Origin: Tepidisphaerales bacterium
Lineage (GTDB): Bacteria > Planctomycetota > Phycisphaerae > Tepidisphaerales > Tepidisphaeraceae
Direction of reading: 5' to 3'
Assembly (NCBI GenBank): GCA_038222915.1
Contig: JBBRHH010000001.1
Span: 1 to 36,092, forward strand
DNA length: 36,092 nt
In this document: piece by piece, positions 9,132 through 33,221 of the stretch
Layout of the letters: every line of letters begins with the position of its first letter
Position numbering within the stretch: the stretch's first letter is position 1
Program-made: the position numbers and the translations under genes
The notes under the pieces: generated by a model
What the model was told of the DNA's origin: nothing
What the model saw: only the letters and a program-made list of their open reading frames with translations
The model's database searches: none

Positions 9132-9185
9132 CACTTGCAGCAACAGAAGACTTCGCACCCAAAGTTCCCACCCAATGGAGGCCGC

Positions 9186-9941: not shown

Positions 9942-9953
9942 GAAGCCCGTTGT

Positions 9954-10793: not shown

Positions 10794-10820
10794 CCATGAC
10801 CCTCTCTCAAGTCTCGAGTT

Positions 10821-12234
<1,414 letters not shown>

Positions 12235-12331
12235 TTTGCGAACAATAAATGTACATAGGCCCGCATACGACAGTGCCCTCGACCTCGCTCCAGAGGTCCG
12301 CCTTGAGGCGTTTCGGCCAGGTGGGATTGAA

Positions 12332-13519
12332 ATGAAACCGTCAAAGCAACTCCGGAAGAATTCGGCCGGTGGGCAGCCTGACTATGACATCGTATTGAAG
12401 GACGTGAGCGGCTTTCTTGAACAAGCCCGCAAAGGGTCCGCGCGGGTCATCAATGCCTTCATGACGGCCGCCTACTGGTGGGTCGGTGAACGAATCGTAA
12501 AGTGGGAACAGGCTGGACGGGCCCAAGCCGTCTACGGCGACGAGTTGGTGAGCAGACTCGCAGATGATCTCAGTACTCGCTTCGGCAGAGGATTCAGTAA
12601 GAGCAATTTGTATCTAATGAGGTCATTTCACTTGGCCTACAGGCAGATTTTCCAGACAGTGTCTGGAAAATCTCGCCAAACGCTCAAGAAAGCTGCGGGT
12701 GCGACGGCAGACGCGGCTAGCCCGCCAAACATCCAAACGATTCCGTCGCAATTGACCACTCTGACGATCCATTTCCCGCTTCCATGGTCCCACTACGTCC
12801 GTCTCCTTTCGGTCAAAGAGCGGGACGCACGAGACTTCTACGAGGCGGAAGCTATTCGTGGCGGTTGGACAGTCCGACAGCTTAATCGGCAGATCGACAG
12901 TCTCTTTTATCAGCGAACGCTCCTTTCGCGAAACAAGAGCGCAATGCTACTTAAGGGTGAGAAGCCGATCTCCACAGACATTGTCTCGGTCGAGGAGCAG
13001 GTAAAAGATCCTTTCGTTCTGGAGTTCCTAGGCCTGGAGGATGAATATTCCGAAAATCAGCTTGAGGAATCGCTCATCCGCCATCTCGAATCGTTTCTGC
13101 TGGAGTTGGGAGGCGACTTCACATTTGTTGGCCGTCAAAAGCGATTGCGCATTGGCCACCAGTGGTTTCGCATCGACCTGCTATTCTTTCACCGCAAGTT
13201 ACGATGTCTTGTCATCATCGACCTCAAAACTGGGGAGTTCACCCACGCTGACGCAGGGCAGATGCATTTGTATTGCAACTATGCCGCGGAGCATTGGTCC
13301 AACACTGATGAAAATCCGCCCGTTGGACTCATCTTGTGTGCGGAAAAAGACAGCGCAGTGGCGCACTACGCACTAGACAATTTGCCGAATAAGATACTCG
13401 CCGCCGAATATCGAACTAAATTGCCGGCTGAAAAGATGCTTATTGCCGAAGTGGTGAATACACGAAGGATGCTCGAGGGCCGCCGCACGATAGCACGGCA
13501 GCGGCACAAAAAGCAGTGA
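12332..13519 (+). CDS. DUF1016 / YhcG-family PD-(D/E)xK nuclease domain protein
   Basis: Family-typical blocks: GFSKSNLYLMRSFHLAY, LPWSHYVRLLSV, FYEAEAIRGGWTVRQLNRQI, VKDPFVLEFLGL, and the nuclease core RIDLLFFHRKLRCLVIIDLKTGEFTHADAGQMHLY. ATG 12332 follows GGTGGGA. Confidence 0.85.
   Translation: MKPSKQLRKNSAGGQPDYDIVLKDVSGFLEQARKGSARVINAFMTAAYWWVGERIVKWEQAGRAQAVYGDELVSRLADDLSTRFGRGFSKSNLYLMRSFHLAYRQIFQTVSGKSRQTLKKAAGATADAASPPNIQTIPSQLTTLTIHFPLPWSHYVRLLSVKERDARDFYEAEAIRGGWTVRQLNRQIDSLFYQRTLLSRNKSAMLLKGEKPISTDIVSVEEQVKDPFVLEFLGLEDEYSENQLEESLIRHLESFLLELGGDFTFVGRQKRLRIGHQWFRIDLLFFHRKLRCLVIIDLKTGEFTHADAGQMHLYCNYAAEHWSNTDENPPVGLILCAEKDSAVAHYALDNLPNKILAAEYRTKLPAEKMLIAEVVNTRRMLEGRRTIARQRHKKQ
12647..12671. 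repeat. perfect 25-bp palindrome ATTTTCCAGACA-G-TGTCTGGAAAAT inside the DUF1016 CDS
   Basis: Read directly. It encodes QIFQTVSGKS. Confidence 0.7.
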
Positions 13520-13526
13520 ATCACGC

Positions 13527-14027
13527 CTACTCCTCAACCTGCCCCCGAATCGTCACCGTCACCCGCAATATCGTCTTTCCGTCCCCCGAACAAAGCACAT
13601 AAATCTTTAACCAGCGCTTCACCAGTGCATTGTGGACCGGCAGATTGTCCACTGTCGCCTCGTACACCACCATCCCCGTTCGCTGCTCCAGCGCCATCGG
13701 CGTAAATTTCAACTTATCCAGCGCCGGAACGGCCGCATACTTCTCCATCTGCGGCTTCGCCCATCGCGACAATGCCCGCACCACATCCGCTGTCACATGT
13801 CCCGCCACCCAGCCGCTCTCCTTCACCCACGCGGCCTGAAATGCCTCCGCCTCCTTCGCAAACGCACCGTCCCCACAAGCCGTCCAGGTATCCGCCTCTG
13901 GAATGGATCCCATCTCCGCCACCAGACACAATGTCGGCCGCGACCCCAACTCCTCCGCTCCTATTTGCACAATTGCAGAAGGCGCAGTCGTCGCGGCGGC
14001 CATCATCACAATCAATGCTGCAATCAT
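13527..14027 (-). CDS. hypothetical secreted protein (166 aa)
   Basis: ATG 14027 is preceded by GAGGA and lies 7 nt after the pyrD stop. Hydrophobic N-terminus MIAALIVMMAAATTAPSA. No family recognised. Confidence 0.6.
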   Translation of the reverse strand: MIAALIVMMAAATTAPSAIVQIGAEELGSRPTLCLVAEMGSIPEADTWTACGDGAFAKEAEAFQAAWVKESGWVAGHVTADVVRALSRWAKPQMEKYAAVPALDKLKFTPMALEQRTGMVVYEATVDNLPVHNALVKRWLKIYVLCSGDGKTILRVTVTIRGQVEE

Positions 14028-14034
14028 GTCTTCC

Positions 14035-14991
14035 TCAAGGATACGGCGCTGTTCGCGGCTCATCCCCCGGCATCTGAAGCGTCCCCACAAGATCCGAAAG
14101 CTTCTCGATCTTCATCTTCTCAAGATACCCCTTCAACCCCTCGCAAATCTTGTTCGGCGTGGCCGGATCCACAAACAACGCCGTCCCAATCGCCACCGCA
14201 CTCGACCCGGCCAAAATAAACTCCACCGCATCCTGCCAGTATTGCACGCCCCCCATCCCAATAATTGGCACCCCCGCCGCCTTCGCCACGGTGCGATACA
14301 CCCGGCTCACCAGATGCAGAGCAATCGGCTTGATCGCCGGCCCCGACAACCCGCCCGTCGTATTTGCCAGCCTTGGCCTTCGCTTGTAAATATCCACCGC
14401 CATCGCCGTAAAAGTATTCACCAGCGAAAGGACATCCGCCCCGCCCTCAATCGTCGCCCGCGCCGTCTGCGTAATGTCCTCCACGTTGGGCGACAGCTTC
14501 ACAATCAGCGGCTTGTGCGGCAACACCTTCTTCACCGCCGCCGTCAGTTCCTTCAACCGCCCCGGATGCGTCCCAAACGTCAGCCCGTCCTTCACATTCG
14601 GACAAGACACATTCAGCTCGACGGCCGCCACACAATCCAGCGAATCCATGGCCGCGCAAGTCTCGGTGTAATCATCAAAACTATGCCCCGCCACATTCAC
14701 AATCACCGGACAAGGCATCGTCTTCAACTGCGGCACCTTCTCCGCCAGAAACCGGTCCAGCCCGACATTCGCAAGCCCAATCGCATTCAGCATCCCCGCC
14801 CGCGTCTCAACGATCCGCGTCGGCTCATTCCCCTTCCGCTCCTCGCGCGTAATCGACTTGGTGACAAAAGCCCCAAGCTGAGAAAGATCCATAAAATCCG
14901 CATATTCAAACGCATACCCACACGTCCCCGAACAGGTCATGGTCGGGTTGGCAAGCGGAATTCCGGCGAGGTTGAGAGAGAGGTCTGGCAT
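14035..14991 (-). CDS. pyrD: dihydroorotate dehydrogenase, class 1 catalytic subunit
   Basis: The N-terminus LSLNLAGIPLANPTMTCSGTCGY, then RAGMLNAIGLANVG, VKLSPNV and the C-terminal GGV...DA.EF..AG pattern are typical of PyrD type 1. Confidence 0.9.
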   Translation of the reverse strand: MPDLSLNLAGIPLANPTMTCSGTCGYAFEYADFMDLSQLGAFVTKSITREERKGNEPTRIVETRAGMLNAIGLANVGLDRFLAEKVPQLKTMPCPVIVNVAGHSFDDYTETCAAMDSLDCVAAVELNVSCPNVKDGLTFGTHPGRLKELTAAVKKVLPHKPLIVKLSPNVEDITQTARATIEGGADVLSLVNTFTAMAVDIYKRRPRLANTTGGLSGPAIKPIALHLVSRVYRTVAKAAGVPIIGMGGVQYWQDAVEFILAGSSAVAIGTALFVDPATPNKICEGLKGYLEKMKIEKLSDLVGTLQMPGDEPRTAPYP

Positions 14992-15047
14992 CTACATCGA
15001 GTTGTACAAGAACCTCACCCGACTTTCATCCAGAGCTTGAGCTCTAG

Positions 15048-15755
15048 CTATCGAGGCCGAACCACAATCTCATCCACCAGCGCCCGCCCGGGCAAATTAA
15101 TCGCCAGCAGCACGCACTCCGCCACATCCTCCCCCTGCAACATATTCACCCGCGCCTCCTGCGGCGGCGGGCTGGGCCGCTTGTCCAGCAAGGGCGTATT
15201 GATATCCCCCGGAAATACCGAGCACGCCCGAATTCCATGTTTCCCCTCCTCCGCATTGATCGACTGCACCAATCCCGCGGCCCCAAACTTCGACGCCACA
15301 TACGCCACCCCCGACAGCGAACTCGCCTGCTTCCCGGCAATCGAATTCACATTCACAATCGTCCCCTCGCGCTGCTGCCGCATCCCCGGCACAAACGCGC
15401 GCGTCAGGTAAAACAAACCGTTCATGTTGATCTCAATGATCTGGAGATAAGTCTCCATCGATACCTTCTCGATGCTCCGCTCCGGCGTATTCGTCCCGGC
15501 CGCATTCACAACCGCGTGCACCGCCCCAAACTTCACCAGCACCATCTTCGCCATCGCCTCCACTTCCCCATTGTTCGCAATATCGCACGGACACTTCAGC
15601 ATCCGCCCCCCGGCCTCCCCCGCCAGCTTAATCGTCTCATCCAGCGTCGCCGCCCGCCGAGCCACCAGCGCCACATTCCACCCCGCCGCCGCCATCTTCA
15701 ACGCCGTCGCCCGACCCACGCCGCTTCCCGCTCCAGTCACTACCGCTGTTTTCAT
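15048..15755 (-). CDS. short-chain dehydrogenase/reductase (SDR) family oxidoreductase
   Basis: Cofactor motif TGAGSGVGRA, NAAG, and the catalytic YVASKFG (YxxxK). AAGGTG lies upstream of ATG 15755. Confidence 0.9.
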   Translation of the reverse strand: MKTAVVTGAGSGVGRATALKMAAAGWNVALVARRAATLDETIKLAGEAGGRMLKCPCDIANNGEVEAMAKMVLVKFGAVHAVVNAAGTNTPERSIEKVSMETYLQIIEINMNGLFYLTRAFVPGMRQQREGTIVNVNSIAGKQASSLSGVAYVASKFGAAGLVQSINAEEGKHGIRACSVFPGDINTPLLDKRPSPPPQEARVNMLQGEDVAECVLLAINLPGRALVDEIVVRPR

Positions 15756-20341: not shown

Positions 20342-20575
20342 GCGGTTCCTTCCTTCGAACTATTTGGCGCGACGTTGTAACAGATGACACCATGCGCGCG
20401 TAGTGAACTCTCTCCTTATCGGATCATCCCGTGACACCGTTGACCTTCCAGGCGCGGCCGCACTCAACTTTATCGGACGCAGCGAAAACCGATTTTTTAT
20501 TAGGCCGCCGTCGCTCCGTCGGTGTATCTTCCTCGCCGTTGCAGGGACAACAAATGGTCCAGCAAAGGAGCAATC

Positions 20576-20728
20576 GTGAACCGTATGCGTGTTCGATCAA
20601 ATCGCAGCGCCCGCAAGACATCCCGCCCCGAGGCCGCCGCGGCAACTGGTTTTCTGAGCCTCCTCGTAAAACTCACCAACGGCAGCGAGCGCCTCAATCA
20701 GGCTCGTGCACGTCGACGCCGCACCTAG
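20576..20728 (+). CDS. candidate small basic protein (50 aa)
   Basis: GTG 20576 lies 6 nt after AAAGGAG. About half of the codons end in C, as in plus-strand genes of this block. The translation is Arg-rich at both ends (VNRMRVRSNRSARK...ARARRRRT). No homolog recognised. Confidence 0.4.
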   Translation: MNRMRVRSNRSARKTSRPEAAAATGFLSLLVKLTNGSERLNQARARRRRT

Positions 20729-21384
20729 CTTTTTGCAGGCAGATGCGCCGCCAGTTGATCCACAATCCCAATCATCCGCTGCACCTCGATCGTATCAAAC
20801 GGCCGGGTCGAAAAATCCAATATCAAATAACCCCCATGCAACAGCAGCCCCACGACGGCCGGCGTTAACCCCACCAGCGACGATCCCCCCACCGCACGCG
20901 CCGCCACCGCGTCGGCCCCAAACACCACAAAACGGTCCGGAGATGCCAGCGACGGATAGCTGCTAATCACAAAAGCATCCAGAAAACTCGACTTGTGCGA
21001 AACCGGCCGCAACCCCGTAAGCGGCCAAGCCGTCCCAATCTTCCGCACCAGCAAGTTCCAACACGCCGGCTTGTCCGAAGCCTCCCCCGGCGTAGTCCCC
21101 GCCTCAAGCTGCACCAGCGAAGTCGAATCATCGCGCAAAGAAAACAACAGCTTCCCCCGAGTCTTGGCATCGGCCACCGGCTCAGGCAATCGCTCCGCAC
21201 CCGGCGGATCCAGCTTAAACCGGTTAGACGCAGCCCAATCCGCAAGTTGAAGCCGCAGCCGATGCGTAGTCCACCGCCGCACCAAAACCCAGAACACCGC
21301 CACCGATGCAATCAAAACAACAACCAGCGCCACCAGCGCAGGCCAAGGACGCGTCAACGGCAATTCCCCAAGAAACTGATCCAT
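20725..21384 (-). CDS. hypothetical N-terminally membrane-anchored protein (219 aa)
   Basis: Intact ORF with one TM (WPALVALVVVLIASVAVFWVLV) and strong G/T-ending codon usage like its neighbours. Confidence 0.65.
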   Translation of the reverse strand: MDQFLGELPLTRPWPALVALVVVLIASVAVFWVLVRRWTTHRLRLQLADWAASNRFKLDPPGAERLPEPVADAKTRGKLLFSLRDDSTSLVQLEAGTTPGEASDKPACWNLLVRKIGTAWPLTGLRPVSHKSSFLDAFVISSYPSLASPDRFVVFGADAVAARAVGGSSLVGLTPAVVGLLLHGGYLILDFSTRPFDTIEVQRMIGIVDQLAAHLPAKS

Positions 21385-21673
21385 GACTCCATTCTAGCGA
21401 ATCAAAACCGCACGTCATGAACGCCAGCCACTGATTCGCAAGTGTCCCAAGCGCCGAGCGCACATCGTTTGGGCCACGGACAGGAACTGTCATCGCGGGA
21501 ACTTTGGCACTCGCTGGGTTACCATGTCGTGCTGATGCAGGTCAACGCGGGCTGTTCGTGCTCGTACGGAGATCGCGGCACCTGCCGCTGGCAGAATGGA
21601 AGCCGCGCGCGTGCAGTGGCGCGGAGCAAGATAGTCGAGAATCATTTCGTTTCAGAAATTCGGAGGTTCATGC
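21385..21673. other. strand-composition (GC and AT skew) sign switch in a divergent intergenic region; candidate origin or rearrangement junction
   Basis: Left of it the plus strand is C/A-rich and right of it G/T-rich, from hand counts and codon reading. The flanking genes diverge. No DnaA box or AT-rich unwinding element was recognised. Confidence 0.4.
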
Positions 21674-22822
21674 ATGCGATCCCGCAATGAACGACGGCGG
21701 CGTAATTGGGCATGTGTTGTTGTGCTTGCGCTATTCGCGTCGATGGGCGCAAACACGTTTGGAGCCGAACACACCGAATTGACATCCAAAAACTGGGAAA
21801 AAATCGCCATGTATTTTTCACCGCCGAAAGAATATGCTGGGAAAATGGGCGACTTTCGTTCGCCGCTCTTATTTGAGGATGGGTCGGCCGTGAAGACGGC
21901 GGAAGATTGGAAACGGCGGCGTACGGAAATTCTATCGGCCTGGAACAAGTTGATGGGCGAATGGCCTGCACTTCTGGACAAGCCGGCCATTGAATATCTG
22001 GAGACGAAGAAACGCGAGGGGTTTACACAGCACAAGATAAACGTGCAGGTGGCGGAGAAGCAGACGGTCGCGGGTTATCTATTGGTTCCGCCGGGCGATG
22101 GGCCTTTTCCTGCCGTCGTCGTGCCGTTTTACGATGCGGAGACGAGCATAGGGTTGGCCGGCAAACCGCTGCGGGACTTTGCATATCAGTTGACCAAGCG
22201 CGGGTTTGTTACGTTGTCGATTGGATCGCCCGGCGGCGATGCGCGCAAGCCGGACACGGCCGGGCATGTGCTGCAGCCGCTTTCGTATCTGGGCTATGTC
22301 GGGGCCAATTGCTACAACGCGCTGGTGGCGCTGCCTTATGTCGACGCGAAGCGCATCGGCATCGTCGGGCACTCGTATGGCGGGAAATGGGCGATGTTTT
22401 CGAGCTGCCTCTACGACAAGTTCGCAGCCGCGGCGTGGTCTGATCCGGGCGTGGTGTGGGATGAGGCGCGGGGGAACGTGAATTACTGGGAAGCCTGGTA
22501 TCTGGGACTGGAGGGAGAGGCGAAGCGAACACCAGGATTGGTGACGGCAGACAACCCGAGAACAGGGGCCTACAAGGAACTGGTAAAGGCCGGCCGCGAC
22601 TTAACAGAACTGCATGCGCTGATGGCGCCGCGGCCGTTCCTCGTTTCAGGCGGGGCGGAGGATGGGGCGGGGCGCTGGGTGGCGCTGAACCACGCGGTAG
22701 CCGTGTACAAGCTGCTGGGGTTTGAGGGCAGGGTGGGGATGACCAGTCGGGAAACGCACGATCCGACGGTGGAATCGAACGAGGTGTTGTATACGTTTTT
22801 TGAGAAGTTTCTGGGGAAGTGA
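21674..22822 (+). CDS. secreted alpha/beta hydrolase (dienelactone hydrolase / esterase-like)
   Basis: GGAGG lies 7 nt before ATG 21674. N-terminus has an Arg-rich signal (RRRRNWACVVVLALFASMGANTFGA). Nucleophile elbow IVGHSYGGKWA. Confidence 0.8.
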   Translation: MRSRNERRRRNWACVVVLALFASMGANTFGAEHTELTSKNWEKIAMYFSPPKEYAGKMGDFRSPLLFEDGSAVKTAEDWKRRRTEILSAWNKLMGEWPALLDKPAIEYLETKKREGFTQHKINVQVAEKQTVAGYLLVPPGDGPFPAVVVPFYDAETSIGLAGKPLRDFAYQLTKRGFVTLSIGSPGGDARKPDTAGHVLQPLSYLGYVGANCYNALVALPYVDAKRIGIVGHSYGGKWAMFSSCLYDKFAAAAWSDPGVVWDEARGNVNYWEAWYLGLEGEAKRTPGLVTADNPRTGAYKELVKAGRDLTELHALMAPRPFLVSGGAEDGAGRWVALNHAVAVYKLLGFEGRVGMTSRETHDPTVESNEVLYTFFEKFLGK

Positions 22823-22879
22823 GGGAGCTCCGCGGAGTCTCGTCCACCAAGGGCCGCAAACAGACGCTACGAATTCAAA

Positions 22880-23143
22880 TTATGCGGCTGTCGATTCAGC
22901 CGAGTCGGAAAAGATCTGGCTTACGCCTTCGTGATCGAAGATGGCCGGGGCTCCCTGGGCGCTGACGAAGACCGCAACGCCGCCGCGCAGAACGAGGGCC
23001 TCTGGATGGTCAACCTGGACGCGGTCGCCACTGACGAGTTCGACCACATACGACTTAAATGGAGTCCGACGTTGAAAACCTCGGATCGCGGTTTGGAAGT
23101 GATCGGTGGTCATGGCCGGCATTATACCGGCCGAATAGTGCAT
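22880..23143 (-). CDS. small hypothetical protein (77-87 aa)
   Basis: This is the only part of ORF 22880..23413 that does not overlap dedA. Possible starts are 23143, 23122 and 23113. The translation looks globular (FKSYVVELVSGDRVQVDHPEALVLRGGVAVFV). Confidence 0.5.
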   Translation of the reverse strand: MHYSAGIMPAMTTDHFQTAIRGFQRRTPFKSYVVELVSGDRVQVDHPEALVLRGGVAVFVSAQGAPAIFDHEGVSQIFSDSAESTAA

Positions 23144-23168
23144 CAGGCAATAATTTGCCGCCTCACGC

Positions 23169-23879
23169 TCAGCCCACTTTTGAGGCAGAAATTTCTGTGC
23201 CTTGTGGCGTCGAGATAGCTTCAAAGCCTTTACGTTTCGACTCGGCCCGGCCTCGCATGATTTCCACGATCGCCGGCAGGATCGAAATAAACACGATGGC
23301 GAGGCTGACGAGTTCGATATGCTTTTTGACGAAGTCGACGTTGCCGAACATTCGGCCGGCGAAGAGGAATCCGAACACCCAGACGATAGCGCCGATGACG
23401 TTGAACGCGGCAAAGTGGCTATAGGTCATCTTGCCGATGCCTGCCACGAACGGCGCGAAGGTGCGGACGATGGGCACGAAACGGGCGAGGATAATCGTCT
23501 TGCCGCCGTAGGTCTCGTAGAACTCGTGGGCCCGCAACAGGTGCTTCTTGTTGAGAAGGCGGGAGCTTTCGCTTTTGAAGATTTTCGGGCCGATCTTGCA
23601 GCCGATCCAGTAATTGACGCTGTCGCCGAGGATAGCGGCGATGCTCAGGAGAACGCCGACGGTAACGAGGTTGACATGGGAGTCGGCGGCCACGGTCATG
23701 ATGCCCAGCAGGAAAAGGAGGGAGTCGCCGGGAAGAAAAGGGGTGACGACGAGGCCGGTCTCGCAGAAGATGACGGCGAAAAGGACGACGAAAAACCAGA
23801 CGCCCATGCTGGCAGCGCCTTTATCGAGGTAGACGTCGAGGTGGTGAAGGATGTCGAGGGTCTGGTGAATCAGATGCAT
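23169..23879 (-). CDS. dedA: DedA family membrane protein
   Basis: DedA/SNARE-associated signature FCETGLVVTPFLPGDSLLF and RFVPIVRTFAPFVAG. ATG 23879 (MHLIHQ) preferred over the ORF maximum at 23921. Confidence 0.88.
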   Translation of the reverse strand: MHLIHQTLDILHHLDVYLDKGAASMGVWFFVVLFAVIFCETGLVVTPFLPGDSLLFLLGIMTVAADSHVNLVTVGVLLSIAAILGDSVNYWIGCKIGPKIFKSESSRLLNKKHLLRAHEFYETYGGKTIILARFVPIVRTFAPFVAGIGKMTYSHFAAFNVIGAIVWVFGFLFAGRMFGNVDFVKKHIELVSLAIVFISILPAIVEIMRGRAESKRKGFEAISTPQGTEISASKVG

Positions 23880-24125
23880 CTTCTCTCCGGTACTGCGAAA
23901 GCGCGAATGGGTTGTGTCCAAACCCCGGTACAGGATGTCTTATCGGAAAAATCCGTGTGCTACAACCGCGCGACGTTTGGGCTCGACGGCGGCGGACGGG
24001 GTCAGCCATGTTGCTTCCCCATCTTTCCAGGCTGCGTCCGATAAGGCTGGCCGGTTGGCGTCGCCAAGATCTATGGCTGAGTTCGCCATCGAGCGGGTTC
24101 ATCCATTAGCTCATCTATAATGGGT

Positions 24126-24183
24126 ATTGCAGAGTCCGTCTGATAATAACACAAATTTTGATCTGCAATCGTCTTATCAGACG
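24126..24183. repeat. two interleaved perfect inverted repeats (A-B-A'-B' order) in the most AT-rich intergenic region
   Basis: A: ATTGCAGA (24126-24133) pairs with TCTGCAAT (24162-24169). B: CGTCTGATAA (24137-24146) pairs with TTATCAGACG (24174-24183). Confidence 0.7.
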
Positions 24184-24361
24184 TGATGGGCCTGACAACT
24201 GTAATTCAGTGTATGGATGAGTCCGGTTAATTGTGGATTCTAGGTAATTGTATTAACTTCTATAATTTTACTTTACCTCAGTGCATTCATGGTTTAGTAC
24301 TTGATAGAATCGGAACGATAGTGTCAGTAAAGGGCCAGTTTGGTGGGCGATTGGAGAGGGT

Positions 24362-25384
24362 ATGCGCGAGGCAGCGACATCAAGTCGAGGCTGGTTTAAC
24401 CGCAGGGCTGTGGCGGCCGCCGCGAGTTCATTATTGTTGAGCTCGAGTGGCTGGGGTTCGCTTATCAATTTTGATCCAGACGGGGCCGGTGGAAATACCA
24501 CCAAACAGATTGGTACCTTCGCGTTTCTGCCGGGCAGCAGCCTGATGCAGAACGTCGCCCATTTCCACGAGGATACCGCTACCTTTCCACTTGGTTCGAC
24601 GTTTAATTTCGACGTCTATCTGCAGGCGCGGGTGGGCAATCTGCTGGACGTCACGAACACACCCGTCGCCGTCTCAGGGTTTAATACGGGCGGATTTGAA
24701 TTGACCGCGGTCACTCATTTTACCGCGACCGCAACGCGCACTTCTGCAACCAAGTTCACAATCAGTCTGCCGCCGGTCGGGCAGCAGACAAGCAACTTCT
24801 TTGAGATCTACTACGATCCCAATGCCGGCACGAAGGCGAATGATCTGGCCGGGACGGGATTTAATGATGTTAGCACTACTGCGAAACAGATTTTCAGCGG
24901 CAAGCTCATCAGTATAACGCCCACGAGCAATATCAGCGTCGATACCAGTTCGATCGATCTCTTCGACCAGTACGATGCCGACGGCGACAACTATGGCGGG
25001 ATGCAGTCGATCTTTTCGGGTGGCAATCTGAAGTTCAATACTTCGGTTGATTCGGTCGACTCCAGCTTCTTCACGGACAGTATGTCAACCTTCACGTTCA
25101 ACACATCGCTGCAATCGCCGTTTTCGTCGGTTGATCCCGGAGCGCAATTTTCGGGAGCGGCCGGGGGACGCACCGCTTCAGACACCACGTATGTTCTCCC
25201 CGATGCCGGAAGCGGGGCGCAGTCCAGCAAGACCAATGGGCTGACCGGTACCGGACTGGAGGACCAGTCATTCGCCAATGGAACGTTTACCGCCGTCCCT
25301 GAGCCGGCGTCGCTGCTCGGTTTGGCGGCCTTTGCGGGTGGGCTGATGCCGCGCCGGCGAAGCCGAACGCGATCATCTAAGTGA
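24362..25384 (+). CDS. PEP-CTERM sorting-domain secreted protein
   Basis: The C-terminus is VPEPASLLGLAAFAGGLMPRRRSR: a PEP motif, a hydrophobic helix and a basic tail. An N-terminal signal-like region is present, and GGAG lies 5 nt before the ATG. Confidence 0.85.
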   Translation: MREAATSSRGWFNRRAVAAAASSLLLSSSGWGSLINFDPDGAGGNTTKQIGTFAFLPGSSLMQNVAHFHEDTATFPLGSTFNFDVYLQARVGNLLDVTNTPVAVSGFNTGGFELTAVTHFTATATRTSATKFTISLPPVGQQTSNFFEIYYDPNAGTKANDLAGTGFNDVSTTAKQIFSGKLISITPTSNISVDTSSIDLFDQYDADGDNYGGMQSIFSGGNLKFNTSVDSVDSSFFTDSMSTFTFNTSLQSPFSSVDPGAQFSGAAGGRTASDTTYVLPDAGSGAQSSKTNGLTGTGLEDQSFANGTFTAVPEPASLLGLAAFAGGLMPRRRSRTRSSK

Positions 25385-25396
25385 CGACACGGCTAA

Positions 25397-25719
25397 TTAG
25401 CCTTGGCGGCCGACTCGATCAAATTCCTTAAACAATTCTGACATGGCGCTCAACACCTGCGGCTGGTCCGCGATGCTGTGGCGTTCGGCGAGGTAACTTG
25501 GATCATCTGATTGCTCTACATCAGCGGTGTGCCGGCGGCGGGGTTTCCAAAGATCAGCAATTCAGTCGGCCGAAGGGAAAGGTTGTTGGCCCTTGCGCCG
25601 GCGGCATGATCGATACGTGCGAAGATGTGAACACTGCGCTGCGTCAGTAGCGCGGCGAGGCGGTCGAGCGTCTGCGTGACCGTACGGACACTTTGAATCG
25701 TGATCAGGCCGGCGTTCAT
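25397..25719 (-). pseudogene. DUF302 domain gene disrupted by an internal out-of-frame deletion
   Basis: The N-terminal 67 codons read as a DUF302 N-half (FARIDHAAGARANNLSLRPTELLIFGNPAAGTPLM) and then hit TAG. In another frame, about 10 codons later, comes a DUF302 C-end (DDPSYLAERHSIADQPQVLSAMSELFKEFDRVGRQG, stop at 25397). The central LDLPLK...V.Y segment is missing. Confidence 0.7.
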
Positions 25720-27542
25720 TTTTGCGATGCGGGTTCGTCGGCGTTAACCGGCTTGGTCGTCGCATCGGTGTGCGGAATGTTCAGCGCTGGTGCGGTTGCC
25801 GGACCGGCCGCTGCGAGCGGCGTATTTTGCAGGACAATCACGAAGTCATACAACTCAGCGGCGGACTCTTCCGCGACGCCGTTCGCCTTTCGCAGGCCGA
25901 CCGTGACATCCGAAGGCCGCGTGGTGGCGGCCGACGGTAGCGTCGCGCTGGGACGCGTCGCCGCGCCAAAGGCGGTCGCCGCGTTCTGGGCCCCGGCGAT
26001 CTTTGCCTGCCCCGGATCACTGGCCAGCTTGTCGGATTTCTCAACAACCTTGCCGTCCGTATTCACACTGCCTATAGCCCCGCCGCCAAACTGTTGGCCC
26101 GACGCAAGGGATCGAAGCGTTGTAGCTCCTGGCATGGTGGACGGTTTGCCCGGCATGATGCCCGCGCCGCCACCCCCACCGGGCTTCATCCCGAGCTGCC
26201 GACTCATCACTTCCGCGCGAGCCGATTTCCGAACCTCCATCGACCATTGCGCATCGTGCTCAGCATTCAGCGATTTGGTCAGTTCCTCGACCTGTGCGCC
26301 GTTCAAGGCGCGGGCCACGATGACCGTGCGGTGCGAGCCGCTTTCACTGCCCTCCGCAAGCTCGGGCTGCGTCGCGGCACCTTTCATCTTGGCGGAGTTG
26401 GCCAGCACCAGGTCATGGCTGCCGTCAGGCGATGTTGTTGGCGAAGGCGAAAGCGTTACTCCGGGAGCGACCTGCAGTTCTGCAGGATGGGTGGCCGGAG
26501 TTGCCCCACTTCCCCGGCTCGCTCCCTGGCCGGCCGGCGCGGCGGGCGCTGTGTCACCCGCCCGGCGTGGAAGCTGTGCTGTGGCAATCGCCGATCGCTC
26601 TCGCGCTTTCGCATCCTCCGCCGCGGCATCCGAGAGCGTACTGTCGGCCACGGGATTTGGACCTGCCGGAATGGCGGCTGGTGCGCCCGCCCCATCCAAC
26701 TCCTTCGCATCCTTCCGGCGGGCCGCGACGGACTCATCGCCGACAGGATTGGTATCCCATCGAATGTTGTTTGTATTGAAGTAGCTGACGAGCCTGTTAC
26801 TGACGGCGTCCACATCCCGTGTAACTCCCACCATCACAATCGGCCCGATGTTCCGCGCGCTCTCAAGGCTTCGATCAGCCATCGCGCTCCGTAGCGTCTT
26901 CATCTCTTCCCGCTTCAACATCAGAGCGCCCTTGCCAACCTGTTCGGCAAGAATTCCGTCAGGAAAATCCTTGTCGTCCTTGGATGCAAGGGTTGGCGTG
27001 GTTCCGCCGGACGTCTCACTCTTTTTCAAGGCGTCATGTTCGCCCTTGGCCAGCGTATCTGATGGCTGGGCTGCGTCGGAATGAGCCACCACTGCCTGCG
27101 TTTCAGAACTCTGGGTTGATGGCGCTGTAACGATGGGGTTGGAAGGTCCGCCGGTCGGCGCGATGACTACCTGCTGGCCGGACCGCGGGAGCATGTTGTA
27201 GATGACAACGCCAAGGCCGCTGGCGAGAAGCAACACAGCCGCCGCCGCCATGATCTGCGGCCAGCGGTTGATGCGCATATCCGAAACCTGTTCATCCGCC
27301 TGATCGTCAAGCAGCACGGCCCGCTCCAGATGCCCCTGGATGGATTCGGCGATGTCCGCCGGCGCCTTGGCGCGTGGCAGCTCGCGCACCATCACCCGCT
27401 GACGCTTAAGCTCTTCAATAACAGCGCGATGATTGGGATTGGCGGCCAGGTGCTTTTCGATGTCGGCGATCTCGTTGGCATCGAGATCCCCGTCGATGTA
27501 GGCACACAGCTTGGCTTCGATATGTTCGGCGTTCTGGGACAT
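25716..27542 (-). CDS. anti-sigma factor (zf-HC2-like N-domain, single TM) with a roughly 480-aa low-complexity extracytoplasmic region
   Basis: The N-terminus AKLCAYIDGDLDANEIADIEKHLAANPNHRAVIEEL is typical of anti-sigma N-domains. TM: WPQIMAAAAVLLLASGLGVVIY. It sits directly downstream of the ECF sigma gene. ATG 27542 preferred over GTG 27569. Confidence 0.75.
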   Translation of the reverse strand: MSQNAEHIEAKLCAYIDGDLDANEIADIEKHLAANPNHRAVIEELKRQRVMVRELPRAKAPADIAESIQGHLERAVLLDDQADEQVSDMRINRWPQIMAAAAVLLLASGLGVVIYNMLPRSGQQVVIAPTGGPSNPIVTAPSTQSSETQAVVAHSDAAQPSDTLAKGEHDALKKSETSGGTTPTLASKDDKDFPDGILAEQVGKGALMLKREEMKTLRSAMADRSLESARNIGPIVMVGVTRDVDAVSNRLVSYFNTNNIRWDTNPVGDESVAARRKDAKELDGAGAPAAIPAGPNPVADSTLSDAAAEDAKARERSAIATAQLPRRAGDTAPAAPAGQGASRGSGATPATHPAELQVAPGVTLSPSPTTSPDGSHDLVLANSAKMKGAATQPELAEGSESGSHRTVIVARALNGAQVEELTKSLNAEHDAQWSMEVRKSARAEVMSRQLGMKPGGGGGAGIMPGKPSTMPGATTLRSLASGQQFGGGAIGSVNTDGKVVEKSDKLASDPGQAKIAGAQNAATAFGAATRPSATLPSAATTRPSDVTVGLRKANGVAEESAAELYDFVIVLQNTPLAAAGPATAPALNIPHTDATTKPVNADEPASQK

Positions 27543-27649
27543 TGTAAGCACCGTTACCTGGGTAACCACTCTTTGCGCCGCAAGGCACTGGAGTAATCGC
27601 CCGGAGCGATTGATCCTTTACTGGGTTTTTCGGGTCATGGACAACGCGG

Positions 27650-28381
27650 TTACCGTCGGCGATCCGAAAAGTAAGCCTTCAACTCGTCCCGAAGGGCGAG
27701 CCGGGCGCGAAACAGGCGGCTCTTCAGGGTTCCCAGCGGCAGGTCGAGCACGTCGGCCATCTGCTGGTAATCGAACCCTTCGACATCCCGCATCACAAGG
27801 ACAGCCCGATATTCGGCATCAAGGCGTCCCAGTGCTGCAAGCACCTGTTCACTGCGCTCGCGACGTTCGAGGTCCTGAGGGGGAAGCTCGGCCTGGTCCT
27901 GGGCCAAGCGATCCATCAGGTTGGAGGCCTGATCGTCGCCGGTGTCGTGGCGGCCTTTGCCGTTGGACGAAGAGAGCGAGAAGACCCGATGGCGTTGCAC
28001 CTTCCGCAACTGGCTGATCGCCAGATTGACGGCGATGCGAAAGAGCCAGGTATACGGGGAGGCATCGCCGCGGAAGCTGTCAAGCTTCATGAGGCCGCGG
28101 GTAAACGCCTCCTGGGTCAGCTCGCGGGCCTCTTCGTGGTCGCCCACGATACGGAGCACCGCGTTGTACAGCCGATCCTGATAAGCCACCACAAGTTCGC
28201 CGTAGGATGCACGGTCGCCTTTTTGCGCCCGTCGCAGCCAATCCGCTTCGCGTGCCGCCTCGAGATCGAGGGTTTGCGGGAAGCGGTCGGCCTCTTGCTG
28301 TGTCCTGCTCAGGCTCGACATGGGGTTTGACGATGGTTGATTGAAAAGGTTCCGCGGAATTTTCTGTACTTCCTGTGCCAA
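27650..28381 (-). CDS. ECF-type RNA polymerase sigma-70 family factor
   Basis: Region 2 (YGELVVAYQDRLYNAVLRIVGDHEEARELTQEAF) and region 4 (YRAVLVMRDVEGFDYQQMADVLDLPLGTLKSRLFRARLAL). TTG start at 28381 lies 8 nt after GGAGG. Confidence 0.92.
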   Translation of the reverse strand: MAQEVQKIPRNLFNQPSSNPMSSLSRTQQEADRFPQTLDLEAAREADWLRRAQKGDRASYGELVVAYQDRLYNAVLRIVGDHEEARELTQEAFTRGLMKLDSFRGDASPYTWLFRIAVNLAISQLRKVQRHRVFSLSSSNGKGRHDTGDDQASNLMDRLAQDQAELPPQDLERRERSEQVLAALGRLDAEYRAVLVMRDVEGFDYQQMADVLDLPLGTLKSRLFRARLALRDELKAYFSDRRR

Positions 28382-28830: not shown

Positions 28831-31800
28831 ATGAGAATGTTGCTGAGAACGCTGTTGATGTTCTCGATCTTCAGTTCAGTGTGCACCGCCGCCGCTGACC
28901 TGACCGCCCCACCACCGGCCATCGCAGACTGGCCTCAATATCGCGGACCGACACGCGACGGCATCGCCCCCGTCGGCCCAAAACTGCTCGACCACTGGCC
29001 CAAAGAAGGGCCGAAGCTGATCTGGAAAAGCGCCTCCCTCTGGAACAAACTCGGCGGCGGAACCGAGAAAGACCTCCTGCCCCACTCCGGCTGCGGCAGC
29101 ATCACCATCGCCGGCGGCCGTGCCTTCATATTCGCCAATTTCAAACGCAACACGGGCGAGGCCGGAAAGGTTGTCCTCACCACCAAAGACCTCACCAGCC
29201 TGGGATGGATCGAAGGAGTGCCCGACGATCTGGCCAAAAAAGTGGAAGTAGAAAGAACCAAAGGCAAGGGAGCGAAACTCAAACGCGGTCCCGAACTGGA
29301 CGCATACGCAAAAAAATACATCGCCGACGTCGATCCTGAGCTGACAAAACAGTTCGGCCCATGGATTCAACGCCGCCTGACCAAAGAACCCCCGCCCAAA
29401 AACCTGAACCGGCTGATCGAAGCCGAAGCTTCCGCCCTGAACGGTGACCCTATATTCGAGTGGAGCTTTCTGGAGAAGCTCGCGACGGTCCGCGATAAAG
29501 AATTCCCCACCGTCGAAGCCATGGATGCACAGTTGGATGGAGTGCTCAACCCGTGGAAGAGCAATTCAGGCAACGCCGTTCGCGTGTTGTTGATCAACCG
29601 CGCTATCAGTTACTTCGACGCCATCATCTGCCTCGACGCCGCCACCGGCGCGCAAATCTGGCGGAAGGAGTTTCCCGGCAGCGTCAGCCCCTATGCAGGC
29701 GCGGCCAACGTCGGCGCTTCAAGCACGCCGGCGATCTGGGAGGACAAGTGCTACGTCGCGGGCAGCACCGCGATGTATTGCCTCTCGGTAAACGACGGCT
29801 CAGTGGTCTGGCAGGACGAGACCGAGTTCAGCAACTCCTCGCCGCTGCTGAAAAACGGCATCGCCTATGTCCTTGTTCCGGAGCCGACAGCGTACGACGC
29901 AAAGACCGGCCGAATACTCTGGCGTCAGCCTTCACTCAACAATCCAAATTCCTCATTCATATCGTGGTCCTCGGGCGGCAAGGACTACCTCATCATCAGC
30001 TTCCAGGGAGGCGTCTACTCCACCCCCTCCGGCGGCATCTACTGCCTCGACCCGGCCAACGGCGCAGTCCTCTGGAAAACTTTTTGCCCCGGCAGCTCCG
30101 TTCCGGTCTTGGCCGGAGTCGACACGCTGGTGATGGAGAGCAGCCACAACATGACGATGGCGTTCAAAATCTCGCCGGAGAAGATCGAGAAAATCTGGGA
30201 AACCAAAAAGACCGGCGACACGCGCGGCGAAAGCCCGGTGATTTTCCAGGATCACGTCTACATTTCCGGCGGCTGCCACAGCAACAATCCCCTGCGCTGC
30301 CTTGATCTGAAGACAGGCGAAATCCTCTGGAACCCGCGTCAAATGAGCGCGGCCGAGGCAAGCTCGCCCGTTCTGGTCGACGGCAAAATCATCGCGATGC
30401 TCGAGAACAGTGAGAACAGCCTGTATGCGGTGATGTACAGGGCGACGCCGGAACAATACGAGGAACTGGGTCGATTCAACCCGGACGCAGGTCCGGGCGC
30501 GTCTCCAGTGGTCGTCAGCGGAAAACTGTATCTGAGACTTCAGGATTGCATCGCCTGCTACGACCTCACCGGCCCCGATCAGGGCGCACCGGCGTTCGCG
30601 ACGACGCGCACTTCAACGCCGCCACTGACAATCACTCCGGCATCAACCACCCGGCCGGCTGCAACGAACAACACCAAACCTGTTCTGACCGACAGTACCA
30701 ACATCCGAGGCTGGCGCGGCGACGGGACAGGCCACTTCGCGCTGGCCGAGCCTCCCACCCAATGGAGCGAAACCAAAAACGTGAAATGGCGCACCGCGGT
30801 CGGCGCAGGCAGTTCGACGCCGGTCGCCTCCGGAAACAGGGTCTTCGTCACCTCCGAGAAATGCACGCTCAACTGCATCGACCGCAAAAGCGGCCAACTT
30901 CTCTGGAAAAAGACCACCCGCGTCCAGGACGCGCCAGCGGACTTCCGGGAAACCGTGCAGGACAGTTTCGAGCGCCCGCGCCCGTCCGGCCTCGCGGCCG
31001 CCACACCCGTCTGCGACGGCGAACACGTCTTCGTCCTCTTCGGCACCGGCGAAGTAAGCTGCTACGACTTCGAAGGCAATCGCACCTGGTCACGATTCAT
31101 CAAACCTGCGGCCATGCAATACGGCCACAGCGCATCCCCATTGCTGGCCGATGGAACACTAGTCGTCAGTCTCGATGGGCTCACCGCGCTGGATTCCAAA
31201 ACCGGCAAGACAATCTGGGAAAACAAAGCCGTCAAACCCGCCTACGGTTGTCCGGTGTTGATGACGCTGGGCGCCACACGGCTGGTCATCACACCAACGG
31301 GTTTCGTGGTCAGGCTCGCCGATGGAAGCATTCTCGCAAAAGAGATCGCCGAAAACCTGGAGGGCGATGAATATTCCATCAGCCCGCTCGTGCACGACAA
31401 CGTCGTCTACTACATGGACAGCAACTGCAGCGCCGTAAAGCTTTCGCTGAACGGCGAGTCGGTCGTGAAGAAAACGCTCTGGACGACCGAGCTCCCCGAA
31501 GCGGCCATCGGCTCCCCGACCTACCACAATGGCCTGATTTTCGTCTGCACCACCACAGGCCACTACAGCGTCTGTGACGCCACGACGGGCAAGCCTGTGC
31601 TGATCGATCCCAAGTCCGGCAAATCAATGGACGATTGCGTCCTGGGCCAGGACGCGCCCGACGATTCAACCGTGGCCAACTTCTACCCAAGCGTGACGAT
31701 CGCGGACAAATGCGTGTACGTGAGCAACGACAAAGGCCGGACGTTCGTACTGGACGCGGCGAAATCGTTCAAAGAGGTGCAGCGAAATACATTGCCGGCC

Positions 31801-31884
31801 GGATCCGGGGCAAGCCTGTTTTTTGACGGGTCAGATCTGTTCATCCGAGGCGGCAACGATCTGTATCGCGTCACCGGGAAATAG
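28831..31884 (+). CDS. secreted tandem PQQ-like (BamB-like) beta-propeller repeat protein, 1017 aa
   Basis: Signal peptide, then two propeller units. Each opens with the family signature: DWPQYRGPTRDG, and GWRGDGTGHF...W. Repeated ...G.V.ALD..TGK..W-type blades are joined by a Thr/Pro-rich linker (about 30570-30700). ATG 28837 is an alternative start. Confidence 0.85.
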   Translation: MRMLLRTLLMFSIFSSVCTAAADLTAPPPAIADWPQYRGPTRDGIAPVGPKLLDHWPKEGPKLIWKSASLWNKLGGGTEKDLLPHSGCGSITIAGGRAFIFANFKRNTGEAGKVVLTTKDLTSLGWIEGVPDDLAKKVEVERTKGKGAKLKRGPELDAYAKKYIADVDPELTKQFGPWIQRRLTKEPPPKNLNRLIEAEASALNGDPIFEWSFLEKLATVRDKEFPTVEAMDAQLDGVLNPWKSNSGNAVRVLLINRAISYFDAIICLDAATGAQIWRKEFPGSVSPYAGAANVGASSTPAIWEDKCYVAGSTAMYCLSVNDGSVVWQDETEFSNSSPLLKNGIAYVLVPEPTAYDAKTGRILWRQPSLNNPNSSFISWSSGGKDYLIISFQGGVYSTPSGGIYCLDPANGAVLWKTFCPGSSVPVLAGVDTLVMESSHNMTMAFKISPEKIEKIWETKKTGDTRGESPVIFQDHVYISGGCHSNNPLRCLDLKTGEILWNPRQMSAAEASSPVLVDGKIIAMLENSENSLYAVMYRATPEQYEELGRFNPDAGPGASPVVVSGKLYLRLQDCIACYDLTGPDQGAPAFATTRTSTPPLTITPASTTRPAATNNTKPVLTDSTNIRGWRGDGTGHFALAEPPTQWSETKNVKWRTAVGAGSSTPVASGNRVFVTSEKCTLNCIDRKSGQLLWKKTTRVQDAPADFRETVQDSFERPRPSGLAAATPVCDGEHVFVLFGTGEVSCYDFEGNRTWSRFIKPAAMQYGHSASPLLADGTLVVSLDGLTALDSKTGKTIWENKAVKPAYGCPVLMTLGATRLVITPTGFVVRLADGSILAKEIAENLEGDEYSISPLVHDNVVYYMDSNCSAVKLSLNGESVVKKTLWTTELPEAAIGSPTYHNGLIFVCTTTGHYSVCDATTGKPVLIDPKSGKSMDDCVLGQDAPDDSTVANFYPSVTIADKCVYVSNDKGRTFVLDAAKSFKEVQRNTLPAGSGASLFFDGSDLFIRGGNDLYRVTGK

Positions 31885-32353
31885 ACGACGCCCTACGCGC
31901 AAGCTCGGCGTTCACCGCCTCCATAAAAGCATTCCGCTGGCTGGCCGAACAATCGGTCAGCGCCTTGAGCGAAACCTTCCTGCCACTCGTGAGGATCAGT
32001 TTGACCGGATCCACCGCATTCACCAGCTTGCACGTCCGAATCGCGTCGTAGGGAATGTGCTGCGCTTTTCCCAGACCGCGAAAGGTAACGCCTTCCCCCG
32101 TGCATCCAACGAAAGATCGGCCGGCCCTGTAAAACTCCAGTACCGCGGCACCCATGGGGATCAGGCCCAGGCAAATGACCGCCACAGAAAATAAACTGCT
32201 CGGGCGGGCCATAATTCCGAAGTTGATCACCACCAACCCAAAGAAGAAGCCCATCACCGCCCGGACAATCACAAAGCGCCAACGCGGACGATAAAAGGCC
32301 GTCATCGGCGTTGCATAAGGGAGAGGCTGGGAATCACCGCCGAGCATTCTCAC
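31871..32353 (-). CDS. small membrane protein: two N-terminal TM helices plus a bacterial-PH-like (bPH_2/DUF304-like) soluble domain
   Basis: The GTG start overlaps the stop of the upstream gene (GTGA at 32350-32353); ATG 32347 is an alternative. TM helices: FVIVRAVMGFFFGLVVINFGI and LFSVAVICLGLIPMGAAVLEF. G/T-ending codons. The domain call is tentative. Confidence 0.6.
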   Translation of the reverse strand: MRMLGGDSQPLPYATPMTAFYRPRWRFVIVRAVMGFFFGLVVINFGIMARPSSLFSVAVICLGLIPMGAAVLEFYRAGRSFVGCTGEGVTFRGLGKAQHIPYDAIRTCKLVNAVDPVKLILTSGRKVSLKALTDCSASQRNAFMEAVNAELARRASSISR

Positions 32354-32919
32354 TTCCCATCAAGCCGCCGCTGCACATCCATGACCAGTCGCTCGAATCT
32401 GGGAAATGACTCCGAGTCATCCTTGAGTTCCAGCAGCGCCGGAAGCTCGCGACGAACATGCGCCAGATCCAATCGACCGTGTTGCCGCGCCAGGATGCTC
32501 TCCACATCACCCCAATCCCGGTCACGCGAAGCGAATATTTTGTGAATCAGAAGATCTTCCGCGGAACAGGTCGTGAGCGAGGCCATGTCACTCAGCTTCC
32601 ATGCTGTCGCCCGTTCGATGGAGCTTTCCTCAAATGGAAATGCTCCCAGCGAAAAATCGAGATCAACGCCCCCTGCCGTGCGAGCGAGCAAGACACGCTG
32701 TTCGATGGCAAATTGCCGCGCATTCCGCACCCGGCCTTCAAACGCCTTCAACAACGTGTCGATGAAGCGCTCCTCCACGCCGAGCCCGGTCAACAGCGTG
32801 ACATCCACATCCTGCGTGAAACGTGGCATTCCCCAGCGCTGCACCGCGACGCCGCCAATGAAGCAAAACCGCCACCTCTGGCTCAGGCAGAATTGTTCCA
32901 CCTCGGCCGCCGCCCTCAT
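32350..32919 (-). CDS. minimal Pol-beta-fold nucleotidyltransferase (MNT-like)
   Basis: hG[GS]-x11-DxD motif FIGGVAVQRWGMPRFTQDVDV, a candidate third carboxylate in GGVDLDFS, and the helical tail EDLLIHKIFASRDRDWGDVESIL. ATG 32919 lies 12 nt after AAGGAG. An alternative TTG at 32940 overlaps the upstream stop. Confidence 0.7.
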   Translation of the reverse strand: MRAAAEVEQFCLSQRWRFCFIGGVAVQRWGMPRFTQDVDVTLLTGLGVEERFIDTLLKAFEGRVRNARQFAIEQRVLLARTAGGVDLDFSLGAFPFEESSIERATAWKLSDMASLTTCSAEDLLIHKIFASRDRDWGDVESILARQHGRLDLAHVRRELPALLELKDDSESFPRFERLVMDVQRRLDGK

Positions 32920-32936
32920 GATGCCGGCCAGCTCCT

Positions 32937-33200: not shown

Positions 33201-33221
33201 CACGTTGTCGCGGTACTTTCA

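Follow-up and report, generated by a model that had tools for sequence, protein, structure and literature searches.

Does a 289-bp spacer between two divergent genes, at which the base composition of the strands switches sign, mark an origin of replication or a place where the chromosome has been rearranged? The spacer lies at positions 21,385 to 21,673 of contig JBBRHH010000001.1 of a Tepidisphaerales bacterium (assembly GCA_038222915.1), and the window analyzed here is that entire contig (36,092 bp). An initial annotation, made from the letters of the window, described codon usage that depends on the strand and flips its sign within the spacer, and held an origin and a rearrangement junction to be equally live explanations. 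We found support for the junction, as a gene pair conserved in relatives is broken in the spacer; the origin reading was not supported. The spacer probably marks where a rearrangement or insertion took place in an uncultured, Tepidisphaerales-like planctomycete lineage that has a mitochondrion-like strand asymmetry.

Gene content and compositional measures

Pfam scans covered 30 open reading frames (ORFs) and 10 small ORFs of the window, and relatives were read over ~21 kb each. Skew was determined as GC and AT skew overall and in 1-kb windows, as GC skew at third codon positions (GC3), as GC and AT skew at fourfold degenerate sites (GC4 and AT4), and at twofold sites as C/(C+T) and G/(G+A). 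All values are read on the plus strand, and limits for the GC4 of single genes are 95% bootstrap limits.

The Pfam matches revealed a chromosomal stretch with mraY-murF-murE, enolase, dihydroorotate dehydrogenase, serS, and further housekeeping genes, together with families typical of planctomycetes (DUF1573, an ECF sigma/anti-sigma pair, and PQQ propellers), and they agreed with the names murE, eno, hydrolase, and dedA assigned initially. The SerRS protein is affiliated with Phycisphaerae/Tepidisphaerales, its top match among species representatives being 77% identical. The features of the left part and of the spacer are as follows.

1 to 21,466, both strands: core block with 17 native genes (CN-hydrolase, UDPGP, DUF1573, mraY, murF, murE, eno, pyrD-like dihydroorotate dehydrogenase, SDR, His-phosphatase, FucI-like, DUF1189, serS, hyp20725, and others), delimited by Pfam and per-gene GC3 and GC4
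12,125 to 13,519, plus strand: YhcG/DUF1016 PDDEXK nuclease gene, an unskewed insert in the core block by GC4, local GC, and Pfam
20,725 to 21,384, minus strand: hyp20725, a membrane-anchored protein whose gene closes the core block (GC4 of −0.86 on the plus strand), characterized through 72 homologues and analysis of its neighbours
21,385 to 21,673, no strand: the flagged spacer, with GC of 0.58 and the flip at ~21,466, at which synteny with every relative examined is broken
21,391 to 21,418, minus strand: promoter-like site of hyp20725, ATGACG-16-TAGAAT, with TAGAAT 7 to 8 nt before the start codon

A strongly asymmetric core block

Across positions 1 to 21,384, the plus strand showed an overall GC skew of −0.26 and an AT skew of +0.14, and 1-kb windows reached −0.49. 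GC3 skew ranged from −0.34 to −0.79 in every gene of the left part supported by Pfam or composition, on either coding strand. At the fourfold sites of the left block, the plus strand contained A, C, G, and T at fractions of 0.11, 0.71, 0.12, and 0.06, respectively (pooled GC4, −0.72; AT4, +0.27), and the twofold values were 0.84 for C/(C+T) and 0.41 for G/(G+A). GC4 was −0.80 in plus-strand genes and −0.69 in minus-strand genes, while codon position 2 gave values near 0. All 17 native genes had a GC4 of −0.50 or lower, with bootstrap upper limits at or below −0.36. These data bear out the initial description of strand-dependent codon usage and of a plus strand rich in C and A whatever the coding direction, and the seven hand counts of C and G on which it drew proved exact on recount.

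As the bias of the plus strand is common to genes of both strands, skew driven by transcription is ruled out. The sign of the skew is independent of the coding strand, its magnitude is greatest at synonymous sites, and an excess of G over C goes together with an excess of T over A on one strand, in the left block and, mirrored, in the related locus L017; this is the pattern of replication-associated asymmetry. The minus strand of the left block, which has the leading-type composition (G>C and T>A), encodes 12 of the 17 native genes. Replication is thus the probable source of the asymmetry: the lineage would be under very strong strand-asymmetric substitution pressure of the replication type, which turns the leading strand G- and T-rich; the plus strand would be the lagging-type strand across the whole contig; and positions 1 to 21,466 would represent old core DNA at compositional equilibrium.

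The sole exception to the skew in the left part is the YhcG/DUF1016 gene, which sits between eno and the next core gene and shows a GC4 of −0.05 and a local GC of 0.53 to 0.55. It looks like a recent horizontal insert, because its homologues are scattered over unrelated phyla: the nearest are only 60 to 69% identical, and the few with a source name come from Deltaproteobacteria, Nitrospirota, and Ignavibacteria. The deposited gene call is 395 amino acids (aa) long, and the true start is therefore probably near position 12,332.

Two further observations concern the left part. Intergenic GC skew there was −0.12 to −0.47, far below the skew at fourfold sites (−0.72), although both kinds of sites are expected to be near neutral; this suggests that an asymmetry in transitions is amplified by a GC-favouring bias at third codon positions. 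In the spacer between the CN-hydrolase and UDPGP genes (2,275 to 2,380), three direct copies of a G-tract-rich unit of 41 to 43 nt (GTCGGTTTGGGGTGATTCAGGGGTCAAAACGGGGTGATTTT) lie on the plus strand amid strongly C-rich surroundings, possibly forming a G-quadruplex or a regulatory element.

A compositional mosaic to the right of the spacer

From position 21,674 to the end of the contig, the overall GC skew was 0.00, since blocks of positive, zero, negative, and again positive sign follow one another. The reversed sign that the initial annotation had assigned to the DNA right of the spacer applies to the patch carrying the hydrolase and DedA genes and, more mildly, to the peroxidase gene, but not to the blocks between them. 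The right-hand features are as follows.

21,467 to 24,100, no strand: G-rich patch with the hydrolase and DedA genes (GC4, +0.44; AT4, +0.22; C/(C+T), 0.47; G/(G+A), 0.69)
21,674 to 22,822, plus strand: alpha/beta hydrolase of the dienelactone-hydrolase family (Pfam)
23,169 to 23,921, minus strand: DedA/VTT membrane protein (Pfam)
24,101 to 24,340, no strand: the stretch of lowest GC in the contig (0.365), separating the G-rich patch from the unskewed block
24,362 to 28,381, no strand: unskewed block with hyp24362, which has a weak PEP-CTERM-like end (plus strand), a zf-HC2 anti-sigma factor (minus strand), and an ECF sigma factor (minus strand) (GC4, +0.03; AT4, +0.03; twofold values, 0.60 and 0.59)
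28,831 to 33,027, no strand: weakly C-rich block with a PQQ beta-propeller protein (plus strand) and an AbiEii-type nucleotidyltransferase toxin (minus strand) (GC4, −0.25; AT4, +0.25; C/(C+T), 0.78; G/(G+A), 0.45)
33,812 to 36,082, minus strand: animal-haem-peroxidase family gene (Pfam), mildly G-rich on the plus strand (GC4, +0.20; AT4, +0.28)

Gene by gene, GC4 was +0.40 for the hydrolase (95% limits, +0.25 to +0.53), +0.50 for DedA (+0.31 to +0.64), +0.06 for hyp24362, −0.04 for the anti-sigma factor, +0.13 for the ECF sigma factor, −0.24 for the PQQ protein, −0.28 for AbiEii, and +0.20 for the peroxidase. All eight right-hand genes fell short of even the least skewed of the 17 native left-hand genes. 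The G-richness of the hydrolase gene is not a trait of its family, as the GC4 of 80 homologues, read in the sense direction, was −0.04 ± 0.29 and only 7.5% of them reached +0.40 or more. The lowest cumulative G−C value of the contig falls at 33,819, at the 3′ end of the peroxidase gene, where a second minus-to-plus flip occurs.

Three right-hand regions have additional features. The stretch at 24,101 to 24,340, in which 200 to 240 bp between DedA and hyp24362 have a GC of 0.365 versus 0.59, contains TATAAT-like boxes and probably represents either a divergent promoter region or the border of the patch. In the AbiEii toxin region (32,350 to 33,203), an overlapping 88-aa ORF on the minus strand (32,937 to 33,203) lies upstream of the toxin gene and is an antitoxin candidate with no Pfam match. 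The peroxidase gene (Pfam E = 5 × 10−132) also contains an SdrD B-like repeat, and its reading frame is open up to the contig end, so the true start may lie past the contig.

The switch coincides with a break in conserved gene order

The cumulative G−C curve has a local minimum at 21,466, inside the spacer, where the sign changes sharply (skew of −0.26 at 21,385 to 21,466 versus +0.16 at 21,467 to 21,673). The sign flip reported initially for the 289-bp divergent spacer is thereby confirmed and located.

A search with hyp20725 retrieved 72 homologues and gave the closest relative, locus L161 (ENA ERZ25039475 contig_6832; 974,954 bp), in which serS is 80% identical at the nucleotide level and 83 to 88% at the protein level and the hyp20725 homologue is 66% identical. 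In nine of nine loci (L161 to L169, from at least six genomes), a gene of 133 to 161 aa encoding an HExxH protein lies directly upstream of the hyp20725 homologue and divergent from it; these proteins carry the motif HEVGHH and are 60 to 68% identical among the loci. No trace of the HExxH gene was present anywhere in the window. Since the pair is kept in nine loci and is absent from the window, the spacer is a derived synteny breakpoint. Comparison of synteny with relatives, which the initial annotation had proposed as a check, thus favours its junction reading, as the conserved pair is broken exactly in the spacer. The edge of the reversed patch, at 21,466, falls at this break, as would be the case for an inverted or translocated segment.

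The spacer retains one recognizable piece of older sequence. The promoter-like TAGAAT box beside the hyp20725 start codon also occurs in L161 and is the sole part of the spacer that aligns with the spacers of relatives; it marks the native part of the spacer. The hyp20725 family itself is restricted to Tepidisphaerales and consists of membrane-anchored proteins of ~220 aa with no Pfam domain. Judged from its conserved arrangement, hyp20725 and the small HEVGHH (zinc-protease-like) protein look like a two-gene module.

L161 shares only the hyp20725-serS pair with the window, and rearrangement in this lineage is therefore fast. L161 is also strongly skewed (GC4 of the hyp20725 homologue, +0.71). 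Its skew continues for ~1.3 kb beyond the start of that gene with no switch at the homologous point, ends at an unskewed element with tRNA-Leu, an integrase, and Prim-Pol, and in the other direction becomes weaker or changes sign at 5 kb. Because L161 is likewise a mosaic and shares few genes with the window, mosaic skew and rapid rearrangement are traits of the lineage.

Some details of L161 stand apart from this comparison. The unskewed integrative element (400 to 8,750 of L161; tyrosine integrase, Prim-Pol, and DUF5131) is located at tRNA-Leu(GAG), ~1.3 kb from the hyp20725 homologue. The serS gene of L161 (11,088 to 12,406) is broken into three ORFs, either by frameshift errors of long reads or as a pseudogene. 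In addition, ~80 nt located 5′ of serS in the window (20,342 to 20,425) are conserved in L161, the blastn match reaching 20,425, past the start codon at 20,341; the segment had no Rfam match and may be a leader or a regulatory element.

Gene order beyond these genes gave little to compare. Around serS, 80 genome loci had no shared neighbours beyond serS itself, save in L070 and L071, where a FucI-like gene adjoins a divergent serS, and around the hydrolase no conserved neighbours were found in 80 metagenome loci. The best match of the hydrolase was 74% identical, and a protein search found no match on the 975-kb contig of L161.

The search for inverted or direct repeats able to flank an inversion returned nothing but short matches, no more than chance would give. 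Among them, a pair of 19 nt at 20,465 and 24,031 was rejected as a flanking repeat, as it would enclose hyp20725 and does not match the skew pattern. There were no tRNA or Rfam matches anywhere in the window, and a tandem-repeat scan found four short repeats, all within 1,211 to 15,711 and distant from the junction. The predicted RNA fold of the spacer was not unusual (z = +0.57).

The spacer lacks the sequence features of a replication origin

The polarity of the switch raises the possibility that the chromosomal origin of replication is located in the spacer or no more than a few hundred bp away, in which case the contrary blocks on the right would have been inserted or inverted later. Read 5′ to 3′, the skew runs from minus to plus, and the flanking genes point away from the spacer. 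Of the eight right-hand genes, three are G-rich on the plus strand, and the predominance of left-block genes on the G-rich strand puts an origin at some point beyond 21 kb. However, no TTATCCACA sequence (DnaA box) with up to two mismatches occurs in 21,300 to 21,750, and such boxes do not cluster in the contig, where matches with one mismatch numbered five versus 3.6 expected by chance, with none in the spacer. The spacer contains no AT-rich unwinding element, and Pfam identified no dnaA, dnaN, or other origin-linked gene among the ORFs scanned. The lack of dnaA and dnaN, of such a box, and of an AT-rich element in the spacer had been recorded in the initial annotation, and each of these points stood.

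The composition of the right-hand DNA also argues against an origin at this site. The right side does not mirror the left, with no gene at equilibrium magnitude, and its G-rich genes have A>T and not T>A (see below). The lowest skew point of the contig is at 33,819, so that 21,466, by the refuting condition of the initial annotation applied inside the contig, is only a local reversal. Together with the uninterrupted skew at the homologous position of L161 and the derived nature of the synteny break, these results indicated that an origin in or beside the spacer is very unlikely, and the origin reading offered initially was not sustained. The AT-rich stretch at 24,101 to 24,340, 2.7 kb to the right of the spacer, was rejected as an alternative origin, as skew there goes from plus to zero, not from minus to plus, and only two weak DnaA-like boxes with two mismatches are present. 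A practical warning follows, namely that local skew minima in such genomes should not be read as origins.

GC and AT skew are discordant in the G-rich genes

The related locus L017 (11 genes on both strands) showed a GC4 of +0.63, an AT4 of −0.44, a C/(C+T) of 0.43, and a G/(G+A) of 0.84, which is the exact mirror of the left block. Thus, the G-rich strand at equilibrium in this clade is also T-rich. The G-rich genes of the window depart from this: the fourfold sites of the hydrolase, DedA, and peroxidase genes contain 99 A versus 59 T on the plus strand, an A fraction (0.627) equal to that of the left block (0.633) and far from the mirror expectation of 0.367 (binomial p = 4 × 10−11).

The hydrolase and DedA genes lie between mirror and local values, with a G/(G+A) of 0.69 (mirror, 0.84), a C/(C+T) of 0.47, and a GC4 of +0.44 (mirror, +0.72), while AT4 is already +0.22. 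In the PQQ-AbiEii block, the twofold values are already of the local type (0.78 and 0.45) and AT4 is +0.25, but GC4 is only −0.25. As rare A and T states must turn over faster than G and C states at sites that are 83% GC, these patterns fit a relaxation toward the lagging-type composition from differing starting points. In a toy model with six rates, fitted to the left block, an excess of G over C with an excess of A over T arose solely when a native block had been inverted and was relaxing under the lagging-type regime, and never if the plus strand was leading. The patch thus appears to have decayed in part toward the composition expected of its new strand, and the model gives the same order of decay.

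From these data we infer the following history. The hydrolase-DedA patch would have become G-rich while the present plus strand was leading-type, would since have changed its orientation with respect to replication, by inversion or translocation inside the genome or by arrival from a similarly skewed relative, and would now be decaying to the local composition. The blocks after the patch would be unskewed or partly adapted newcomers, and the 289-bp spacer would join the core block to ~15 kb of DNA of shorter or different residence histories. The YhcG gene and the integrative element of L161 serve as internal controls for reading unskewed DNA as recently arrived.

Could the join instead be an assembly artefact, that is, a chimeric or mis-oriented join in the metagenome? 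The junction was seen once, in a single metagenome contig, and disruptions of skew are a known symptom of misassembly (PMC7717575). However, a native segment flipped by mistake should mirror the core block fully, with a GC4 of +0.72 and an AT4 of −0.27, instead of the +0.44 and +0.22 observed for the patch. Moreover, the twofold sites of the PQQ-AbiEii block share the regime of the left block, the spacer sequence at the join is unique and offers no repeat on which an assembler could go astray, and the independently assembled closest relative is equally mosaic. We consider an artefact very unlikely.

Alternatively, the right-hand DNA could consist of one or more horizontally acquired islands, with the G-richness of the patch inherited from a skewed donor and no inversion within the genome. 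Its content is of the accessory type (AbiEii toxin, ECF sigma/anti-sigma pair, and animal-type peroxidase), its unskewed blocks are similar to the YhcG insert, which is clearly foreign, and an integrative element lies beside the same gene pair in the nearest relative. The hydrolase family is 65 to 74% identical across Tepidisphaeraceae and Verrucomicrobia, and strongly skewed contigs that carry it are possible donors (L112, L149, and L082; GC4 values below). On the other hand, the window has no integrase, no tRNA, and no meaningful flanking repeats, direct repeats included. Acquisition as islands predicts the same junction and differs from a rearrangement only in the source of the patch; we regard it as rather unlikely.

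Several points weigh against the rearrangement or insertion junction that we prefer. The evidence from skew is confined to the contig and is not at replicon scale, and the hydrolase-DedA patch was found in the opposite orientation or in an ancestral place in no relative. A simple inversion in situ leaves the missing ancestral HExxH neighbour unaccounted for, so that more than one event, or a translocation, would be needed. The GC4 of single genes scatters by ~±0.3 in unskewed relatives, and the values of the PQQ, AbiEii, and peroxidase genes are therefore individually nonsignificant. Finally, the rates fitted in the toy model are implausibly uneven, and the model predicts a C/(C+T) of 0.61 for the PQQ block versus the 0.78 observed.

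Magnitude and distribution of the asymmetry

The initial annotation had called the magnitude of the bias unusually large, which is right and falls, if anything, short of its true extent. The median of the mean absolute skew was 0.047 across 134 related loci, and only L017 (0.27) equalled the left block of the window (0.26). Loci whose SerRS is 77% identical (L001, L003, and L004) were unskewed, with a GC4 of −0.01 in L001. Further extreme GC4 values, at hydrolase loci, were +0.85 (L112), −0.72 (L149), −0.70 (L142), and −0.66 (L082). On a quick SerRS tree, weak as a single-gene tree, skewed lineages were scattered among unskewed ones (the window with L161, L012 with L005, and L017). This distribution suggests that the trait may have been repeatedly gained or lost. 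In the literature on extreme GC skew in Planctomycetes or bacteria, we found no description of this phenomenon. Such values exceed those known from well-studied bacteria, which mostly have an overall skew below ~0.2; even Borrelia is weaker at synonymous sites.

The spacer itself would be ordinary, a rearrangement breakpoint exposed by skew. What is unusual is the background: a free-living high-GC bacterium with C and G in a ratio of ~6:1 at the synonymous sites of one strand, and with unskewed relatives at 77% SerRS identity. One speculative and rather unlikely idea is that several scattered Tepidisphaerales-like lineages independently gained a mitochondrion-like asymmetry (~70 to 80% G at the fourfold sites of the leading strand) through altered chromosome copying or repair. 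Candidate causes would be a lagging-strand template that stays single-stranded for unusually long or a loss of repair of deaminated C and A. If this is true, the composition of each gene would act as a clock of its time in the present orientation, and the order in time of rearrangements and transfers could be read from one sequence. If confirmed on closed genomes, the clade would offer a natural experiment on why mutation differs between the replication strands: the replication and repair genes of skewed versus unskewed sisters could reveal what sets the strength of the bias, and inversions, translocations, and transfers could be recognized, and roughly ordered in time, by composition alone.

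Comparison with known systems

Like a bacterial oriC, the spacer has minus-to-plus polarity and divergent flanking genes. Unlike an oriC, it has no DnaA boxes, no unwinding element, no mirror-image composition on its two sides, and not the lowest skew point of the contig, which is itself devoid of dnaA and dnaN.

Replication-associated compositional asymmetry of strands (GC and AT skew, with chirochores) is said to have been described by Lobry in 1996. The window resembles it in that genes of either orientation have the same sign, the bias is maximal at synonymous sites, and G>C occurs with T>A on one strand, which holds most of the genes. It differs in being far larger, with 71% C versus 12% G at fourfold sites and an overall skew of −0.26 to −0.49, in the scattered occurrence of the trait among close relatives, and in an intergenic skew far below that at fourfold sites.

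Local reversals of skew from inverted genes or segments were reportedly treated by Rocha and Danchin in 2001 and by Tillier and Collins in 2000. As in such cases, a bounded reversed patch lies within a replichore, its edge is a synteny break, and its composition appears to have decayed in part. In contrast, no allele in the opposite orientation was found in relatives, and the ancestral neighbour is gone, so that a simple in-situ flip does not suffice; furthermore, the very strong bias makes the stages of decay (AT4, twofold sites, and GC4) legible gene by gene. It is accepted that such reversals mark inverted DNA (Merrikh & Merrikh 2018, PMC6220195).

Vertebrate mitochondrial DNA (PMC4182315) has a comparable magnitude at fourfold sites and one G+T-rich strand, as would result from deamination of C and A during long single-stranded periods, whereas the window, with 59% GC and with mur, eno, and serS genes, is chromosomal and belongs to a free-living bacterium.

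In Alphaproteobacteria, core genes concentrate in GC-skew peaks (PMC9836097). Likewise, the long-resident core genes of the window are the most skewed, and accessory or plastic regions are less so; the window shows a far larger contrast, which would serve to date blocks within one contig.

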